From a virus: a stretch of 55,135 nt of DNA. Below the pieces are notes generated by a model. The model was not told the DNA's origin. It did not search any database and worked only from the letters and a program-made list of their open reading frames with translations. This document shows positions 11,827 to 54,325 of this stretch, one piece after another; within the stretch, counting starts at the first letter, position 1; each line of letters begins with the position of its first letter. The stretch lies in UHGV virus genome UHGV-0258472, one strand, 5' to 3'. A program made the position numbers and the translations under genes.

Positions 11827-11924
11827 ATATCACCTCATATGGTATTCAATAAACCATCTAACAAATAAACATAAAGCAATAAACCCCCAACAAATGCACA
11901 TAAATAGCAATGTGTCGTCCATTG

Positions 11925-13209: not shown

Positions 13210-13390
13210 TTAACACCTCGACGTATTGCTCAAGATGCCATTGACCAACCTCGTCGTCTTCTTCATCAAATAATGTTACCTGCCCACCTGGACCAAAAGA
13301 AATGGCAGCTATAATAAATTTATAGCCATACCATGTGCGGATCTTTTCACCGCCTTTCAGGTGTTTAACCTTCACTAATTTTATAGCCAT
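13199..13390 (-). CDS. hypothetical protein (63 aa)
   Basis: ORF track; ATG at 13390. Confidence 0.4.
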   Translation of the reverse strand: MAIKLVKVKHLKGGEKIRTWYGYKFIIAAISFGPGGQVTLFDEEDDEVGQWHLEQYVEVLNEN

Positions 13391-13653
13391 ACGCCGAACA
13401 TCCCATTCAATCCGGCGAACAATTTCCGCCAGTGGTCTTCAACATAAGCCCGGAACGGCTTAACGCGAACATTGCGGGCCTTCAGTTCAATCTTGTCAAA
13501 GAAGATCGGCTCTATAATTGTTCCGTCCAGGTATTTAACAAGGATCGGGCGCTCAAGATCGTTATATGCTTTATTCAGCACGACCAGCCCAGGGTCACTA
13601 CGATATGCGGGCAAAACAACGAGATCACCAGCTTTTGCATTCCACGGAGTCAT
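13381..13653 (-). CDS. hypothetical protein (90 aa)
   Basis: ATG at 13653 with SD aaggggtga. Confidence 0.45.
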   Translation of the reverse strand: MTPWNAKAGDLVVLPAYRSDPGLVVLNKAYNDLERPILVKYLDGTIIEPIFFDKIELKARNVRVKPFRAYVEDHWRKLFAGLNGMFGVWL

Positions 13654-13772
13654 AACATCACCCCTTTACCAATAAGGGCAATCACCGCCGCCAGTGCGCC
13701 ACAAAAGACAACCGTAAACAGGAAGCAAATAACGCAAAACGCGACCGTTACAATATCCTTACTGACTTTCAT
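13650..13772 (-). CDS. small hydrophobic membrane peptide (40 aa)
   Basis: ATG at 13772 after SD gagg; stop overlaps next start (ATGA). Confidence 0.4.
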   Translation of the reverse strand: MKVSKDIVTVAFCVICFLFTVVFCGALAAVIALIGKGVML

Positions 13773-13780
13773 AATTAGCC

Positions 13781-13894
13781 TCACATATTAGTAATCAGTT
13801 TTATGATCGCCACCGTAATATAAAGCGATACGCTGAGATACAGCACCGCCACCGCTACCGCCGCAAGCAATGCGGCAATTTTTGCAAGATTCAT
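13781..13894 (-). CDS. small hydrophobic membrane peptide (37 aa)
   Basis: ATG at 13894 overlaps upstream stop (ATGA); SD ggaggg. Confidence 0.4.
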   Translation of the reverse strand: MNLAKIAALLAAVAVAVLYLSVSLYITVAIIKLITNM

Positions 13895-14115
13895 TTCCCG
13901 CCCTCCGCAATGAATTTATCAAGCCATTTGTTATTCGCCAGTCGTTCGGCATCTTCGCCAAATGATTTACGTTCGCTTAATTCCTTGCGCGTTGGAAAGT
14001 GCCAGTGATCATGCCAACCCGCAGACGTTTCGAATTCATACAAACCACCGCTAAAAGTAATAAGATCATCAGCACCGTCCGGCATTTCTTTATCGACTTC
14101 TTTATCTTCGACCAT
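13891..14115 (-). CDS. hypothetical protein (74 aa)
   Basis: ORF track; ATG at 14115. Confidence 0.4.
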   Translation of the reverse strand: MVEDKEVDKEMPDGADDLITFSGGLYEFETSAGWHDHWHFPTRKELSERKSFGEDAERLANNKWLDKFIAEGGK

Positions 14116-17632: not shown

Positions 17633-18634
17633 ATGAGGTTAATGCTTATGAGTATGCGGCTAATGGTAGAGGTATTCCATACTGAGGTCGGTGATCCAAT
17701 GCACAAACTAGTGCTGTTGAAGTTAGCTGATAACGCTAATGATAACGGCGAGTGTTACCCTTCTTACCATCACATAGCAAAGGAGTGTGAGATCAGCAAA
17801 AGAACAGCTATGAGGGCTGTAGACTCACTTTGTGAAAAAGGGTTGTTGATTAAACAACCAAGATACTTAATCGGAGGAAAAGAGCAAACTAGTAATTTCT
17901 ATGTAATAGTCCTTCCGTCATTGCATGGTAGTGTCACTGTGACACCGGGGGTAGTGACACAGAGTCACCAGGGTAGTGACACAGAGTCACCGGGGGTAGT
18001 GACACAGAGTCACCCTAACCAGTCATATATAACCAGTAAAGAGAACATTAAAGATATACCCCCTTATATCCCCCCAAAAGAAAAACATGTCAATCAGGAT
18101 GGCATAAACGAAGCGGCGTTGCGTTGCCTGGCCTTCTACAACGACAAGGCAGGATGCAAGTGTCGTGATGCTAAGCCATTCATCGAACTACTGACAGAAA
18201 CAAAAACACGTAAGGCATATACTGAGGATGAGATCACGTTAGTAATTGAGTGGGCTTTAACGCAATGGCGTAGCCGTGGTGGAACACCTAAGCCTATCAA
18301 CATTTGCAGGGTAACTAAGTTTGATGGGTATTTGGCTGATGCTGAACAATGGCGCAAGCTATCAGCTACTGTAAACGCTGCCGACGTGGTGGAAGCATTT
18401 AACAGCACGTTTGACGGCCTGTTACCACCTGCCGAACTGGATCGTGATCTTGAGCGCAAGATCTATGCGTTCACTGACTACCTGAAAGACAAAAGCATTA
18501 ACGGCTTTGTCGCCTACTTCGAAACGTTCAAAAACACGGCTTCAGATTTTTACTTCGGCAATGGCTTTACTGCGACACTTGATTTCCTGCTTAAACCAAA
18601 AACGCTACGTGATACACGCGCTGGCGCTCTTTGA
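17633..18634 (+). CDS. replication initiator protein containing the origin iterons
   Basis: N-terminal winged-HTH-like region; iterons embedded in the coding sequence as in lambda O; true start may be ATG 17699 (SD gaggt). Confidence 0.65.
   Translation: MRLMLMSMRLMVEVFHTEVGDPMHKLVLLKLADNANDNGECYPSYHHIAKECEISKRTAMRAVDSLCEKGLLIKQPRYLIGGKEQTSNFYVIVLPSLHGSVTVTPGVVTQSHQGSDTESPGVVTQSHPNQSYITSKENIKDIPPYIPPKEKHVNQDGINEAALRCLAFYNDKAGCKCRDAKPFIELLTETKTRKAYTEDEITLVIEWALTQWRSRGGTPKPINICRVTKFDGYLADAEQWRKLSATVNAADVVEAFNSTFDGLLPPAELDRDLERKIYAFTDYLKDKSINGFVAYFETFKNTASDFYFGNGFTATLDFLLKPKTLRDTRAGAL
17928..18014. repeat. origin iterons: one degenerate plus three exact copies of GTAGTGACACAGAGTCACC
   Basis: Copies at 17928-17946 (degenerate), 17951-17969, 17974-17992, 17996-18014; each carries an internal GTGAC/GTCAC inverted repeat; AT-rich segment follows. 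Confidence 0.7.
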
Positions 18635-18766
18635 CCACCCACGATCCGCAAAAAACAAAAATTACCCACAAAACAACCTCACCAGCGAACTAAATCGCAT
18701 ATGGTGCTACACTTGCTTACCTTTTGCGATTAGCTCGTTATAGAGCATTACAGAGAGGATTTTAAA

Positions 18767-18868
18767 ATGGACGGTAAACACGTTTTCGCCCTGGCTTTTG
18801 CCATCGCTGCGGCAATCGCTGTTAACGTCGCTTTGTTCGGCGGTTTGTACCTTCTCGTTAATCCATAA
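18767..18868 (+). CDS. small hydrophobic peptide (33 aa)
   Basis: ATG at 18767 with SD agagagga; Ala/Leu-rich single TM-like translation. Confidence 0.4.
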   Translation: MDGKHVFALAFAIAAAIAVNVALFGGLYLLVNP

Positions 18869-19009
18869 CCTACCTACCAGTCTGTAAATCGAAAATTAGC
18901 CACCTGATAGCGCCTCTGACGCAATAAGACACTGCAACCTGTGCAAACTGGTGTCGCGGTGGGATTTTTGCGTTGTAGCGCGTCTGAGGCGTTTTAAGGA
19001 GTTGGAACG

Positions 19010-19933
19010 ATGCGCAAGTTAACACATGATGAACATGTTGCGGCTATCGCTAAGGTTAATCATGATGTCGAAGTGCTTGGGGAAATTGTTAATAACAGGA
19101 CAAAAGTATCCTGCCGCTGCAAGGTTTGCAGTCACGAATGGTCGGCTAGACCTTACAATCTTAAAAGCGGTCACGGCTGCCCGAAATGCGCCGGAAAGAT
19201 GAAATTATCACACGAAGAACAGGTTGCCGCTATCGAGAAGGTTAATTCTGATGTCGAAGTGATTGGCGAAATAATAAACGGCTATACAAAAGCATTATGC
19301 CGCTGCAAAGTTTGTAATCACGAATGGTCGGCTAAACCTAACAACCTAAAAAACGGGCGCGGCTGCCCGAAATGTAAAGGTTTAAAAATCGCACAAAGAC
19401 GAACATTATCACACGAAGAACATTTATCCGCTATCACTAAGGTAAATCATGATATTGAAGTATTGGCAGAAATAATAAACGATAGGACAAAAGTATTATG
19501 TCGATGCAAGGTTTGTGATCATAAGTGGTCGCCTAGACCTTATGCTATTAAAAGCGGGCAAGGCTGCCCGAAATGTGCGAAACACGGTTTTTTGTCACAC
19601 GATTTCGGCAAACTTTACATCATGGTTGATGATCCTGAAGTGCCTACACAAATGAAAATCGGCGTAAGCGTTAATGAGAACAAGCGAAGAAATCGGGTAT
19701 TAAAAAGCGCACATAAATCAGGCGTTAGAATCCCTGATTTATGTGTCGTGAAAACGTTAGAAGGTCCAACCGAAAATATCCATGAATTAGAAAGCACGAT
19801 GCATAAATATTTCAGCAATTATAAAATTAACTTTCCTGTAAAATTTGATGGCAGCAATGAGTTTTTCTATTACAGGCCTGAAGTATTCGACATGGTAGAA
19901 GAAGCATATAAAGAGGTTGTTTGCTGCCAATGA
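19010..19933 (+). CDS. protein with three tandem zinc-ribbon repeats and a C-terminal T5orf172/GIY-YIG-like domain
   Basis: Three ~60-aa repeats each with CRCKVC ... GCPKC; C-terminal KLYIMVDD ... KIGVS ... NEFFYY resembling the GIY-YIG/T5orf172 pattern; ATG 19010 with SD aaggag. Confidence 0.6.
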   Translation: MRKLTHDEHVAAIAKVNHDVEVLGEIVNNRTKVSCRCKVCSHEWSARPYNLKSGHGCPKCAGKMKLSHEEQVAAIEKVNSDVEVIGEIINGYTKALCRCKVCNHEWSAKPNNLKNGRGCPKCKGLKIAQRRTLSHEEHLSAITKVNHDIEVLAEIINDRTKVLCRCKVCDHKWSPRPYAIKSGQGCPKCAKHGFLSHDFGKLYIMVDDPEVPTQMKIGVSVNENKRRNRVLKSAHKSGVRIPDLCVVKTLEGPTENIHELESTMHKYFSNYKINFPVKFDGSNEFFYYRPEVFDMVEEAYKEVVCCQ

Positions 19934-37253: not shown

Positions 37254-37332
37254 TATGTGTGATCACTACATATTAGAAGTGATTATTATAATAATAGGAT
37301 TATTGTTTATTCTGCTATCAACAATGTAAAAC

Positions 37333-38866: not shown

Positions 38867-41206
38867 TTATTTGCGACGAGGTTGTAATATTCCGCCTGGT
38901 CTTTGTGATTCCCTTGTTATCATTTTCATTGCTACACGTTCCATTGTCTGCTCAAGTCTGCGGCTGTCATCGTCGCTAAATCCGTTTGTGGTCTGAATGT
39001 TGATATTGACAGGCATACTAATGCCGCCGCCACCGCCAATATCACGCCCAGGAATAATTCTGCCATTCTCGCCAGGGATCATATATTGATTTCCGTTAGA
39101 TGTCTGGAATAGCTCCGGCCTGTTGTGTTCCCCTACACGGTACATATTGCCACCAATGACGCTACCACCATTAAAGCGTCCTCCGCCAAAAATTGACGTC
39201 GCCAGCGACATGATCGCAGAAAGCGCCGCCGCACCAGCCGCCGCCCAGCTACCACCAGTTGACGCAGCCGTTGCCGCCGCTGCCGGGGCCGCCGCCGCAG
39301 CAATCTGGCCTTGTGCCGCTACCGCGCCAGCCGTGGTACTTGCCTGCGTTGCCTTGCTTTGTGTCTCCATCATGATTTGATCTGCTATCCAGTCAGCGGC
39401 TATATCTGAAAGTCTGCTACCAATATTGCCGAGGATATTGCTACCTAAGTTAGCAAAAACATCGCTCAATGATTGAGTACCGTTTAACAGACCAACAAGC
39501 GCATTGCTCATACCACCTTTAAGGCCATTAACGCAATCACCGATCAGGCCGTTAGTGTCGCTTTGCGCCTGCCATTGCTCCCACTTCAGATCGCGGATCT
39601 GCTGCTCATAGGCTAACAATTCCTGTTTCTGTTGCGCTTCGGTAGCCCCCAGGTCGATAAGCATTTGCTTACGAATTGCCCATTCATTCTGTACCTGCTG
39701 AATAGGGTCAACCTCGCCTTTTAGCTGGTCCATCGGGCTAACTATTTGCGACCATTTATCACGCAATTCATCTACAGGGATTTGCGCTAATTCTTCCTTC
39801 AGTTCCTTGCCTATCCCTTTTTGCGCGGCGCGGTACTCAAGGATGGTGATTTTACCCTGGGCGAATGCAGCATCAATGGCCTTGCCGTTCTCTAATGCTT
39901 TGCGCATGGCGGCGGCGTCTTTGTTGTACTGGTCAGAAACGCTTATGCCTTTGTCACCAAGCCGATCAGCTTCTGATTTCTTCTCTTTTTTCGGTTTTTT
40001 CGGCTTATCAACTGGCTGATCGAATCCGGTGATCTTGCCGTCGTTAGCCTCACCCTGTTTCTGCATGAACTCATCATAAGCGGCAGTCGCGTTTTTAATA
40101 TCGTTTGCAAACGTCATAACCTTGCCGACGGTAGGGCCGAATTTTTTCTCGTTGTTGCTGTTTAGCTCTTCCTTGCGTTTATCGACAATTTCCTTCATCC
40201 ATTTGTAGCCATCCATTAGCGCTTTTATTGGCGTTACCATTCTAATGATCTCTTCCGCCACCTCACCAGCCTTAACAGCCACGTCGTCAAACATGTCGAT
40301 GAATTCGCTACCAGCCGTTTTGAGTGTATCGAAGCATGTTTTAGCAAATTTAGCGCCCTCGCCAAGTCCTTTAACGCCCTTCGTGATTAAGTCGATAGCT
40401 GATACCACGCCGTCTGATACGCCGAAAAGATCGTCCAACTGCTCAACAAGGCCCATGATCTCTACTTTAAGCTCATTGATAGCCATACCGGATGTGCGCG
40501 GCAACTGAGCAAACTTATCGTTTGTTTCCTGCGTAGCCGCCTGGATCGCGTTGACCATCCTTTCAGCCGTGATCTTGCCGTCCAGCATTTCTGCGCGGAA
40601 CTGGCCCATTGATAATCCCATCTGGCGGGCCATTGTCTGTACGATGGTCGGGGTGTTCTCAAGAAGGCTGTTGAATTCTTCAGCACGGAGTACGCCGCCG
40701 TCGATAGCCTGGCGGAACTGGCGCATTGAGTTAGACATCTGTTCCGCTGATGCACCACCTAACGCTCCCATTTTCTGAATAGTGCCAACAAGGTTAAGTA
40801 ACTGGCCTTCAGTAGCGGATGTGTTCTTTAATGAGATGGCAAGTCCTTGCCATAATTCGCCAGTATCTTTCAGGCTCTGGCCTGTTTCTTTCGATATTGC
40901 TTTCAGGCCGTCGAAAACCCGTCCGGCGGACTCCGCATCGCCAGTAAGCATTTTGATTTTTACGCGTAGCATTTTTGCTTGTTCCGCCATATCCATAAAT
41001 TGGCGCACTGCTTCCGCAGCAAGTAGCAGATGGATGACCCTGGTCAGTGCTTTGATGGATGTTTTCAGGGTGTTTACCTGGCGGTCAGCCTGTTTTGCGC
41101 CGCGCTCTATACGGTCAAAGGCCTGGTCTGCCTGTCGTTGTGCAACGAGAAGTTGACCAGTTTTTGCATCAACCTCGTAATAAATTGTACCTACACTGGT
41201 AGCCAT
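38867..41206 (-). CDS. tail tape measure protein
   Basis: 779 aa, Ala/Gly/Gln-rich with long helical segments; position upstream of M/L/K/I/J; ATG 41206 with SD gaggt. Confidence 0.8.
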   Translation of the reverse strand: MATSVGTIYYEVDAKTGQLLVAQRQADQAFDRIERGAKQADRQVNTLKTSIKALTRVIHLLLAAEAVRQFMDMAEQAKMLRVKIKMLTGDAESAGRVFDGLKAISKETGQSLKDTGELWQGLAISLKNTSATEGQLLNLVGTIQKMGALGGASAEQMSNSMRQFRQAIDGGVLRAEEFNSLLENTPTIVQTMARQMGLSMGQFRAEMLDGKITAERMVNAIQAATQETNDKFAQLPRTSGMAINELKVEIMGLVEQLDDLFGVSDGVVSAIDLITKGVKGLGEGAKFAKTCFDTLKTAGSEFIDMFDDVAVKAGEVAEEIIRMVTPIKALMDGYKWMKEIVDKRKEELNSNNEKKFGPTVGKVMTFANDIKNATAAYDEFMQKQGEANDGKITGFDQPVDKPKKPKKEKKSEADRLGDKGISVSDQYNKDAAAMRKALENGKAIDAAFAQGKITILEYRAAQKGIGKELKEELAQIPVDELRDKWSQIVSPMDQLKGEVDPIQQVQNEWAIRKQMLIDLGATEAQQKQELLAYEQQIRDLKWEQWQAQSDTNGLIGDCVNGLKGGMSNALVGLLNGTQSLSDVFANLGSNILGNIGSRLSDIAADWIADQIMMETQSKATQASTTAGAVAAQGQIAAAAAPAAAATAASTGGSWAAAGAAALSAIMSLATSIFGGGRFNGGSVIGGNMYRVGEHNRPELFQTSNGNQYMIPGENGRIIPGRDIGGGGGISMPVNINIQTTNGFSDDDSRRLEQTMERVAMKMITRESQRPGGILQPRRK

Positions 41207-41556: not shown

Positions 41557-41664
41557 ATGGATACCATCAAAAGCATCATAGAAGTGTATATATCAGCATG
41601 GGTGGCTTTTAATGTAATGGCTGTATTCGTGCTGGCATTAACAATAAAAGGCGAATGTAAATAA
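41557..41664 (+). CDS. small hydrophobic peptide (35 aa), moron cassette C
   Basis: ATG 41557 with SD gaggcg; single TM-like segment. Confidence 0.35.
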   Translation: MDTIKSIIEVYISAWVAFNVMAVFVLALTIKGECK

Positions 41665-52118: not shown

Positions 52119-52202
52119 TCAATATTTATTGATGATATATACGCAAGCAACAAAACTTGCACAGTATGTTAATACTTCCAACCAGTCGAATAATTCTTTC
52201 AT
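52119..52202 (-). CDS. micro-gene 10 of array: MKELFDWLEVLTYCASFVACVYIINKY
   Basis: ATG 52202 with SD aaggtga; in-frame upstream ATGs could extend it. Confidence 0.35.
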   Translation of the reverse strand: MKELFDWLEVLTYCASFVACVYIINKY

Positions 52203-52270
52203 TGTTGCCATCACCTTTACTTTACTTGCTGAATTTAGGAAGCGCATAAATTGCGCGTCCAAGCTATAAC

Positions 52271-52339
52271 CTATTGAGTTAGCGCGGTCATGGTAAGAAC
52301 AATAGCAACAATCAGGAAAAAGAAATCAAGCCATTTCAT
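52271..52339 (-). CDS. micro-gene 9 of array: MKWLDFFFLIVAIVLTMTALTQ
   Basis: ATG 52339 with SD aggag. Confidence 0.4.
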   Translation of the reverse strand: MKWLDFFFLIVAIVLTMTALTQ

Positions 52340-52355
52340 TTTTAACTCCTGCGAT

Positions 52356-52427
52356 TCAGTTAACGCTTAAAAGCACCGCAACGATGACGATCACTATAAT
52401 CATGCAAAAGAAGTCTGCTTCCCTCAT
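52356..52427 (-). CDS. micro-gene 8 of array: MREADFFCMIIVIVIVAVLLSVN
   Basis: ATG 52427 overlaps upstream stop (ATGA). Confidence 0.4.
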   Translation of the reverse strand: MREADFFCMIIVIVIVAVLLSVN

Positions 52428-52504
52428 CTTTTTAACCCTCGATAAAAATCAACGGCAATTACTGTAATAACAGCCACCAGCAATAGCATTTCGTATGCGT
52501 TCAT
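52424..52504 (-). CDS. micro-gene 7 of array: MNAYEMLLLVAVITVIAVDFYRGLKR
   Basis: ATG 52504 overlaps upstream stop (ATGA). Confidence 0.4.
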   Translation of the reverse strand: MNAYEMLLLVAVITVIAVDFYRGLKR

Positions 52505-52599
52505 TTGATGCTACCCATAACAAGACCAATGATGATGATTATGGCGACAATGCCTAACATCATTCCGCACATAATCGCCAGTAATTCGAATATATCCAT
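52501..52599 (-). CDS. micro-gene 6 of array: MDIFELLAIMCGMMLGIVAIIIIIGLVMGSIK
   Basis: ATG 52599 with SD aggtga; the ORF-track 67-aa version is a non-ATG upstream extension. Confidence 0.4.
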   Translation of the reverse strand: MDIFELLAIMCGMMLGIVAIIIIIGLVMGSIK

Positions 52600-52607
52600 G
52601 CCGTCAC

Positions 52608-52682
52608 CTATACAACATTCTTCCACCAGAAATAGATAATGACGGCGACCAACGACCACCAGATGAGATCGTAAATATTCAT
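52608..52682 (-). CDS. micro-gene 5 of array: MNIYDLIWWSLVAVIIYFWWKNVV
   Basis: ATG 52682 with SD-like aaggta. Confidence 0.4.
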   Translation of the reverse strand: MNIYDLIWWSLVAVIIYFWWKNVV

Positions 52683-52693
52683 GGTGAATACCT

Positions 52694-52768
52694 TCAGCTT
52701 TCAATGAATATCATGATCGCCAGCCATACAGCGACGCAGGCAGAAAGGATAATGAGCGGGTCAATCAT
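52694..52768 (-). CDS. micro-gene 4 of array: MIDPLIILSACVAVWLAIMIFIES
   Basis: ATG 52768 with SD ggtga, 4 nt after upstream stop. Confidence 0.4.
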   Translation of the reverse strand: MIDPLIILSACVAVWLAIMIFIES

Positions 52769-52772
52769 ATTT

Positions 52773-52847
52773 TCACCATAGCCTGTAAATGTTCACGCCA
52801 ATACCTATGATGAGCACAAATAACCAAATGAGATCGTAGGCATTCAT
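52773..52847 (-). CDS. micro-gene 3 of array: MNAYDLIWLFVLIIGIGVNIYRLW
   Basis: ATG 52847 overlaps upstream stop (ATGA). Confidence 0.4.
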   Translation of the reverse strand: MNAYDLIWLFVLIIGIGVNIYRLW

Positions 52848-52939
52848 GATTTGCTTTTTACAGTTATCAGTACAGCTATAATAAAACACACCAGGAATAC
52901 AGAAATGCCGATCAATCCGGCAATGATATAATCATCCAT
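52844..52939 (-). CDS. micro-gene 2 of array: MDDYIIAGLIGISVFLVCFIIAVLITVKSKS
   Basis: ATG 52939, 2 nt after upstream stop. Confidence 0.4.
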   Translation of the reverse strand: MDDYIIAGLIGISVFLVCFIIAVLITVKSKS

Positions 52940-52941
52940 AA

Positions 52942-53031
52942 TCAATCCTGCATAGACATAGCCACCAGAAACATGCAAAGAATGAATCCAGCCGCCATAC
53001 CGCCTATAAACGTTAATATTGATGCAATCAT
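52942..53031 (-). CDS. micro-gene 1 of array: MIASILTFIGGMAAGFILCMFLVAMSMQD
   Basis: ATG 53031 with SD ggggtga, 2 nt after stop of 53034..53576. Confidence 0.4.
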   Translation of the reverse strand: MIASILTFIGGMAAGFILCMFLVAMSMQD

Positions 53032-53854: not shown

Positions 53855-54325
53855 TTATTCTTTGCGTATGCACTGCGTCTTGATGTAGTCCTGCAATCCG
53901 GTGATCTTCGCGTCTTTCTCTTTTAGTTGTTCTCTGAGGGATAGATAAGCCGATTCAGCGTCGGGAGTGAGTCTACAGGCGGCTCCATCAATGCTGCTGG
54001 CGGTTCCGGTGGCGTCTGACACTCGCACGGGTATTGCGTTGACGTGCAACCGGATAGCACCGCTATCAATACCAGCACGCAGATCAGCAATGTCAGATCT
54101 GATAGCTTTAATTTCATCGTGATACCTCTTATCAAGTTTTGACAGTTCGGCGTTTCGCTCCTTCATCTGCTGAATAGTGTTACTTGCTGTTTTTAGTGCG
54201 CCCTGCGTAGTAGTTAGCTCGCTTTGCATTGTGTTTATCACTGACTGGCAGTGACTAAGCGCGGCAACAAGCCCAACAACGACACAAACGATAGCGGCGA
54301 TGATTAACGTCTTCACCTTGTCCAT
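53855..54325 (-). CDS. Rz-like i-spanin
   Basis: N-terminal TM anchor, coiled-coil periplasmic domain; ATG 54325 with SD ggggtga; follows endolysin. Confidence 0.7.
53923..54117 (-). CDS. Rz1-like o-spanin lipoprotein embedded in Rz in the +1 frame
   Basis: ATG 54117 with SD aagaggt; lipobox LSGC, Pro-rich mature region; fully nested within Rz. Confidence 0.65.
   Translation of the reverse strand: MKLKLSDLTLLICVLVLIAVLSGCTSTQYPCECQTPPEPPAALMEPPVDSLPTLNRLIYPSENN

Follow-up and report, generated by a model that had tools for sequence, protein, structure and literature searches.

Micro-genes for predicted single-pass membrane peptides in the early operons of mEp021-group coliphages

Three short genes and their neighborhoods

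The window analyzed in this study, the whole stretch of 55,135 nucleotides of the virus genome UHGV-0258472, contains ORFs that are shorter than the usual length cut-offs, and raises the question of whether such ORFs are real genes and, if so, what their products might do. The three ORFs of 40, 37, and 33 amino acids listed in an earlier note on this sequence were all found: orfA (13650–13772, 40 aa, MKVSKDIVTVAFCVICFLFTVVFCGALAAVIALIGKGVML), orfB (13781–13894, 37 aa, MNLAKIAALLAAVAVAVLYLSVSLYITVAIIKLITNM), and pepC (18767–18868, 33 aa, MDGKHVFALAFAIAAAIAVNVALFGGLYLLVNP), which is located after a replication gene. The minus strand carries orfA and orfB, a correction to that note, and the plus strand carries pepC.

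orfB is located downstream of a 74-aa gene (13891–14115, minus strand, a match to PHROG 28542) and orfA upstream of a 90-aa gene (13381–13653, minus strand, a match to PHROG 28396), both PHROGs being of unknown function. An ATGA overlap joins the stop codon of the 74-aa gene to the ATG of orfB, and another joins the stop codon of orfA to the ATG of the 90-aa gene, with an 8-nt spacer between orfB and orfA in the window. The two micro-genes had been described as having overlapping starts, which was not borne out, as the overlaps are with the 74-aa and the 90-aa genes. The SD sequences, which had been called good, are present for all three ORFs: GGAGGG for orfB (13901–13906, minus strand, at −12 to −7), GAGG for orfA (13779–13782, minus strand, at −10 to −7), where it covers the orfB stop codon (TGAGG), and GAGAGGA for pepC (at −14 to −8), of which GAGGA is found at 18755–18759 on the plus strand within AGAGAGGA. 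The orfB SD is contained in the last codons (A-E-G) of the 74-aa gene and the SD of the 90-aa gene (GGGG/GGTG) is within the final orfA codons. The relatives have conserved SDs and conserved junctions (ATGA or TGATG), and all of them retain the GGAGG of orfB. Since the downstream SDs are located inside the last codons of the upstream genes, some of the conserved residues reflect a dual constraint. The segments concerned are the orfA C-terminus (GKG, FRG or GG; 13653–13665, minus strand), where the GGGG SD for the 90-aa gene is found, and the 74-aa C-terminus (13895–13910, minus strand), which carries the GGAGG for orfB.

Overall, the translational coupling that had been proposed for these genes holds for orfB and orfA, which are part of an ATGA stop/start chain, and not for pepC. 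The latter starts 132 nt past the stop codon of the 333-aa replication gene and the next ATG is 141 nt further on, distances to the neighbors which indicate that pepC is not translationally coupled. An alternative GTG start for orfA at 13784 was rejected because the variable length of the spacer places the extension out of frame in the relatives. Relatives of the 90-aa gene are named “toxin-antitoxin system toxin subunit” by PGAP and in the mEp021 record; no Pfam, NCBIfam or PADLOC model matched the 90-aa gene, and its only match was to the PHROG of unknown function.

The window is a relative of the mEp021/mEpimmI group of temperate E. coli phages. The region is 85–88% identical to the mEp021-group (mEpimmI) coliphages and MagusPhagus, and its identity to an E. 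coli UMNK88 prophage is 98.7%. The gene order in the relatives is cI, N-like antiterminator, 40-aa ORF, Erf, SSB, Abc2, 74-aa gene, orfB, orfA, and 90-aa gene (the names N-like, Erf, SSB, and Abc2 are annotations of the relatives), which places orfB and orfA between gp22 and gp23 of mEp021. The N-like protein Gp17 acts at two antitermination sites, of which nutR1 precedes gp17 and nutR2 follows gp32 (PMC11893012). Based on the position between gp22 and gp23, and because nutR1 and nutR2 bracket the region, we infer that orfB and orfA belong to the Gp17-antiterminated early operon. pepC, with its own SD, is located in the opposite early operon.

None of the ORFs is new in the strict sense, as public records already carry them as unnamed hypothetical proteins. 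All three are hypothetical proteins in PHANOTATE-based records (mEp044, mEp010, mEp013, mEp515, mEp554, and MagusPhagus; in mEp044 they are named mEp044_27 for orfB, mEp044_28 for orfA, and mEp044_13 for pepC). Within the prophage records examined, PGAP calls orfA alone of the three, and in UMNK88 alone (RefSeq WP_000868625.1). The mEp021 reference annotation and most PGAP prophage annotations omit these ORFs, and small transmembrane peptides are not mentioned in the paper on the mEpimmI group (PMC11893012).

Conservation, selection, and distribution

The conservation of the reading frames in relatives, the check that the earlier note had suggested, was examined in 61 homologous regions, which are, besides the window itself, 7 phages, 8 E. 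coli prophages, and 45 IMG/VR contigs. orfA is open in 61 out of 61 regions, with a length of 38–40 aa, and orfB in 60 out of 61, at 35, 37 or 39 aa. The sole exception is a metagenomic contig (L029) in which a 1-nt deletion in an A-run disrupts orfB, which may be an assembly error or real decay. A single-nucleotide indel is also found in contig L108, where the 74-aa gene is frameshifted and orfA is shortened to 37 aa, with the same two explanations. Indels inside orfA and orfB are 3 or 6 nt long, and indels of 1 nt or other non-multiples of three are found in the spacer. The spacer is 7, 8, 9 or 2–3 nt long, with differences of single nucleotides, while both frames stay open. The pepC ORF contains no gap columns, compared with 8 and 17 in its flanks, and its identity (0.90) is higher than that of the flanks (0.87 and 0.77).

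In E. coli STEC306–308, a KilA-N gene of 714 nt has inserted precisely between the two micro-genes orfB and orfA, with both ORFs intact. The retention of both ORFs despite this insertion indicates that orfB and orfA are separate gene modules. In STEC308 (NZ_CP091020.1, positions 668–1381 of the extracted region L016) the insert takes over the position of the orfA SD and ATG and is followed by an intact orfA.

Selection was measured as the pooled Nei–Gojobori (NG86) dN/dS over unique DNA sequences, together with the number of variable columns at the first, second, and third codon positions. The ratio is 0.20 for orfB (24/19/35 variable columns, 31 unique sequences), 0.33 for orfA (21/22/35, 35 sequences), and 0.13 for pepC (8/6/25, 25 sequences), with 0.16 for the 74-aa gene (32/21/63, 34 sequences) and 0.19 for the 90-aa gene (29/24/72, 41 sequences). 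The ratios of the micro-genes resemble those of these flanking genes, with orfA under looser constraint than its neighbors. The two shifted sense frames display ratios of 0.8–1.6 and stop codons in every sequence. The antisense frame that shares third positions has a low ratio but contains stops in 30/31 sequences over orfB and 5/35 over orfA, and an antisense ORF of 119 aa (13432–13791, plus strand) was treated as a shadow ORF. As pooled pairs are not independent, five divergent lineages were also compared pairwise, which resulted in a significant synonymous excess in 10 out of 10 pairs for orfB and 8 out of 10 for orfA. The relatives all lie close to one another, with nucleotide identities of at least about 76%, so that the evolutionary depth of these comparisons is shallow. 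The conserved frames, the in-frame indels, and the synonymous excess show that the three ORFs behave as real genes, and the sequence comparison makes it very probable that orfB, orfA, and pepC are translated.

A profile search with orfA identified 71 homologous clusters, all of 37–48 aa and all from E. coli or from Caudoviricetes contigs of about 54 kb. When orfB was compared exhaustively by phmmer with 1.84 billion representative proteins, the search returned no more than two representative clusters, and the 74-aa neighbor is equally confined to the group. Remote-homology matches for the orfA, orfB, and 74-aa queries are limited to close relatives in E. coli or Caudoviricetes, and scans of the GTDB species-representative genomes with the orfA and 90-aa profiles identified no genome. 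A tblastn search with pepC gave one match with E = 8, probably as a result of low-complexity masking. Neither orfB, orfA nor pepC matched a model in Pfam, PHROGs, NCBIfam or PADLOC (best E-values of 0.05–0.5, failing the cut-offs), no homologues outside the mEpimmI phage group were found in the protein-cluster and GTDB searches, and no paralogy with other micro-peptides in the window was found for any of the three. Judged by this distribution, the genes appear to be specific to, and near-universal in, the mEp021/mEpimmI group.

These are well-supported phage genes below the usual length cut-offs that annotation of the reference phage and of most prophages has missed, and essentially all sampled members of their phage group, a common one in the human gut, carry them. 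For annotation, the lesson is that a gap of 100–250 nt within a phage operon deserves a check for coupled micro-ORFs.

Peptide properties and candidate roles

The ORFs had been said to encode single-helix hydrophobic peptides, and the predicted properties agree with this description. The highest mean Kyte–Doolittle hydropathy over a 19-residue window (KD19) is 2.5–2.8 for the three peptides, and their uncharged cores consist of 26 (orfB), 29 (orfA), and 28–29 (pepC) residues with tails of 0–9 residues. AlphaFold2 run on single sequences predicts one continuous helix for orfB (residues 3–35, pLDDT 95) and for orfA (residues 4–39, pLDDT 86.7), and the hydrophobic helix character is kept in all orfA and orfB variants. 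With 37, 40, and 33 aa (33–40 aa in the relatives) the peptides are within a length of about 50 aa or less, and each contains one hydrophobic helix long enough to span a membrane according to KD19 and the uncharged cores, and for orfA and orfB also according to AlphaFold2. Each peptide seems to be little more than one membrane-spanning helix, and single-pass membrane peptides are a likely assignment for all three.

Residues that are invariant among the relatives are A7, A11 (A7xxxA11), Y19, S23, and Y25 in orfB, F12, C13, F17, F19, G25, A28, and A29 (including G25xxxA29) in orfA, and the mid-helix N20, G25, and G26 in pepC. By type, these are residues that often take part in helix packing. A Fourier test on column entropy did not identify a significant helical 100-degree periodicity of conservation (p = 0.13, 0.37, and 0.81), and this pattern of conservation does not demonstrate a single conserved binding face. 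The terminal charges are mostly +1/+1, which makes the topology ambiguous by the positive-inside rule. Minority variants that lose the C-terminal charge retain N-terminal Lys or Arg residues, and the sequences lean weakly toward an N-in topology.

The best overall explanation, which is put forward tentatively and falls a little short of an even chance, is that the peptides are early-operon small membrane proteins that contact other membrane proteins. The early operon of orfB and orfA would start with the N-like antiterminator gene, and both ORFs would be translated by termination-reinitiation in a four-gene chain (74 aa, orfB, orfA, and 90 aa). Such a chain implies that orfB and orfA are made in step with their neighbors soon after infection or induction. 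The peptides would then insert into the host inner membrane and act on a membrane protein of the host or of the phage by helix–helix contact, a mode of action that is described in a review of small membrane proteins (PMC12648545). Early expression, membrane insertion, and target binding are the three steps that we infer from the available data, and the specific view of the peptides as partner-binding modulators rather than membrane-damaging toxins is somewhat more doubtful than the overall explanation. Such a role would be played early, in host takeover or as an accessory function, and not in lysis or virion assembly. Early operons, where the three genes are located, are the usual place of host-takeover functions, and characterization of the genes could reveal new host membrane targets. 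As a more speculative extension, which is improbable at present, the unusually large and conserved set of single-helix micro-proteins in the mEpimmI phages might represent a coordinated program that rewires host inner-membrane proteins, and within this set orfB and orfA might form a membrane complex of fixed stoichiometry with the co-translated 74-aa and 90-aa proteins, resulting in a new host-takeover, exclusion or anti-defense module.

Among the alternatives, the one that survives best is that the peptides are membrane-damaging effectors, similar to type I toxins or holins, which oligomerize and depolarize the inner membrane for host shutdown, for the exclusion of superinfecting phages or for abortive infection. 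This is unlikely but deserves to be taken seriously, since the peptides fit the architecture described for type I toxins, with fewer than 60 aa, a single transmembrane helix, and very short tails, and prophage-borne membrane toxins are known (PMC12648545). Furthermore, the hydroxyl-rich stretch of orfB (Y19, S21, S23, Y25, and T27) and the invariant mid-helix Asn of pepC are features that are able to drive self-association. However, orfA and orfB are embedded in an operon via stop/start overlaps and no promoter of their own was identified for them, the cores contain no charged residues, and the lysis cassette is far away at about 53.8–55.1 kb. An antisense RNA is likewise unsupported, as weak consensus scans identified 2 promoter-like sites on the opposite (plus) strand near orfA and orfB compared with 2.6 expected, and the hairpin within orfB does not exceed synonymous-codon shuffles in stability (mean z −0.03).

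Very unlikely is the possibility that the act of translation alone matters, with ribosomes being kept on the 245 nt that separate the 74-aa gene from the 90-aa gene so that Rho-dependent polarity is prevented and coupling is relayed, while the peptides themselves are irrelevant. The tight stop/start chain, in which each downstream SD is located inside the upstream coding sequence, is what such a function would look like, but it does not account for the purifying selection on the amino acids of both ORFs, the invariant residues, and the retained helix character. The KilA-N insertion breaks the chain in STEC308, yet both ORFs are retained, and the explanation is inapplicable to the uncoupled pepC.

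That 13650–13894 is non-coding regulatory DNA, a terminator or an antisense transcript is barely credible: the mEp021 record places TERM_2 on a hairpin (GCCGCATTGCTTGCGGC) inside orfB with no genes called there, and a terminator-like site is found on the plus strand at 13860–13876, but the hairpin derives from Ala GCN codons and has the stability of synonymous-codon shuffles in the 31 sequences, MagusPhagus-type sequences lack it, the window has no U-run on the sense strand, an Rfam scan gave no match, and the coding signature over the region is strong. A reading of the hairpin as a terminator or antisense RNA is disfavored by the same shuffles. The hairpin corresponds to orfB codons 7–12 (13860–13876 in the window and 2556–2572 in the homologous region L003), and in mEp021 a U-rich tract comes after TERM_2 on the sense strand, a tract that is missing in the window. 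Promoter-like and terminator-like sites occur in the region at chance frequency. Consensus scans, which are weak evidence, identified no promoter-like site on the orfB/orfA strand and none at 18500–19100 around pepC, and a tRNA scan of the region found nothing. Downstream of pepC, a conserved non-coding block (18869–18985, plus strand, AGCCACCTGAT...GCGGTGGGATTTTTGCGTTGTAGCGCG) is folded by RNAalifold into a long hairpin with a T-run, with one compensatory pair only and a single-sequence z-score of −0.97; its role might be that of a terminator or regulatory site.

Micro-ORF richness and comparison with known systems

The window was scanned for micro-ORFs, defined by an ATG, an SD, a length of 20–70 aa, and a KD19 of at least 1.9. 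A total of 15 micro-ORFs were identified, 11 of which are located in gaps free of long ORFs. The same scan of 100 dinucleotide-preserving shuffles gave 0.94 ± 1.0 micro-ORFs (maximum 5), which shows that the number in the window is higher than expected by chance, and lambda and HK97 contain 3 each (0.6–0.8 per 10 kb compared with 2.7 per 10 kb in the window). The suggestion in the earlier note that this phage invests heavily in tiny membrane peptides is supported, at the level of such micro-ORFs, by these counts. At least 14 candidates fall into three settings: four in the early operons, about ten in an array between the lysis and terminase genes, and a few lone ORFs. The fourth early-operon micro-ORF (11830–11922, minus strand, 30 aa, MDDTLLFMCICWGFIALCLFVRWFIEYHMR, with a GGAGG SD) was missing from the earlier list. 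It is located further down in the same early operon as orfB and orfA, is conserved in mEp044, mEp021, MagusPhagus, and IMG/VR contigs, and is annotated in mEp044 and MagusPhagus.

The array (52120–53031, minus strand) consists of about ten tandem micro-ORFs of 22–32 aa, nearly all of them encoding one hydrophobic helix and many being chained via ATGA overlaps. It is flanked by the Rz/Rz1 lysis genes and a 180-aa gene on one side and by the terminase small subunit gene (annotated in the relatives) on the other, and 5–8 hypothetical proteins are annotated within it in the relatives. Three members (MNAYDLIW..., MNIYDLIW..., and MNAYEMLL...) look paralogous and are the only ones within the array that seem related to each other. 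A segment of about 100 nt within the array recurs, with roughly 80% matches, in over 80 further E. coli phages, which are rV5-like myoviruses. Lone hydrophobic micro-ORFs with SDs are found in gaps of the structural region at 37255–37329 (plus strand, 24 aa) and 41557–41664 (plus strand, 35 aa). Lambda (J02459) carries an unannotated hydrophobic ORF of 26 aa with an SD at 40567–40647 (plus strand, MTIYITELITGLLVIAGLFIWGRGKS), which bridges a CDS ending at 40570 and a CDS starting at 40644 with a 4-nt overlap with each.

The closest known counterparts of orfB, orfA, and pepC are the hypothetical proteins of the mEpimmI phages (mEp044, mEp010, mEp013, mEp515, mEp554, MagusPhagus, and WP_000868625.1), which are orthologues at the same positions with the same lengths (35–40 aa and 33 aa) and 55–97% amino acid identity, none of them with a described function. 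Fremin et al. reportedly catalogued phage small-gene families in Cell Rep in 2022 and found conserved, mostly hydrophobic smORFs. Compared with small-gene catalogues, orfB, orfA, and pepC are specific members that are confined to one phage group. Lambda Kil and cIII are short host modulators that are encoded in the early operon next to recombination genes and are not transmembrane peptides, and Caulobacter SidA and SPO1 gp56 are small membrane proteins that inhibit division. The likeness of the three peptides to these four proteins is one of analogy only, as short products of early or stress operons that act on host machinery.

Type I toxins (Hok, TisB, IbsC, LdrD, and ShoB, and the prophage-encoded BsrG and YonT) are likewise small hydrophobic single helices with short tails (PMC12648545). 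They differ from orfA and orfB, which form part of an operon and for which neither a promoter of their own nor an antisense RNA is supported, and from pepC, for which an antisense unit is unsupported; a stand-alone mRNA with its own promoter was not identified for the three ORFs in the weak consensus scans. Holins and antiholins are located in the lysis cassette and carry a charged hydrophilic C-terminal domain, whereas the three ORFs are located 35–40 kb away in early operons and their tails are 0–8 residues long with a net charge of −1 to +1. The lysis cassette is marked by an Rz/Rz1-like pair (53855–54325, minus strand), in which a 64-aa ORF with a lipoprotein-type signal (…LSGC) at 53923–54117 (minus strand) is located out of frame inside a 156-aa ORF, the arrangement of an Rz/Rz1 spanin. 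The superinfection-exclusion lipoproteins (Lpp of mEpimmI, Cor, and Llp) differ in carrying a lipobox, [LVI][ASTVI][GAS]C (motif from PMC11893012). Direct reading of the three peptides identified no such motif, as the orfA cysteines are preceded by VAF, CVI, and VVF and orfB and pepC have no Cys.

The chromosomal proteins AcrZ, MgtS, MgtR, KdpF, and CydX, which modulate larger membrane proteins of bacteria, resemble the peptides in being single-pass proteins of 29–49 aa that consist almost entirely of the transmembrane helix and act by helix–helix contact (PMC12648545). No sequence relationship between these proteins and the peptides was detected, and AcrZ-type proteins are chromosomal and stress-regulated whereas orfB, orfA, and pepC are phage early-operon genes. 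Intergenic smORFs of the Enterobacteriaceae are similarly conserved, under purifying selection, mostly hydrophobic, and potentially transmembrane (PMC11188072). The finding is sound but ordinary and involves no new principle: the three ORFs exemplify small phage genes of the sort often overlooked in annotation, not a new kind of system, and they belong to the well-known class of small hydrophobic phage proteins (PMC11188072).
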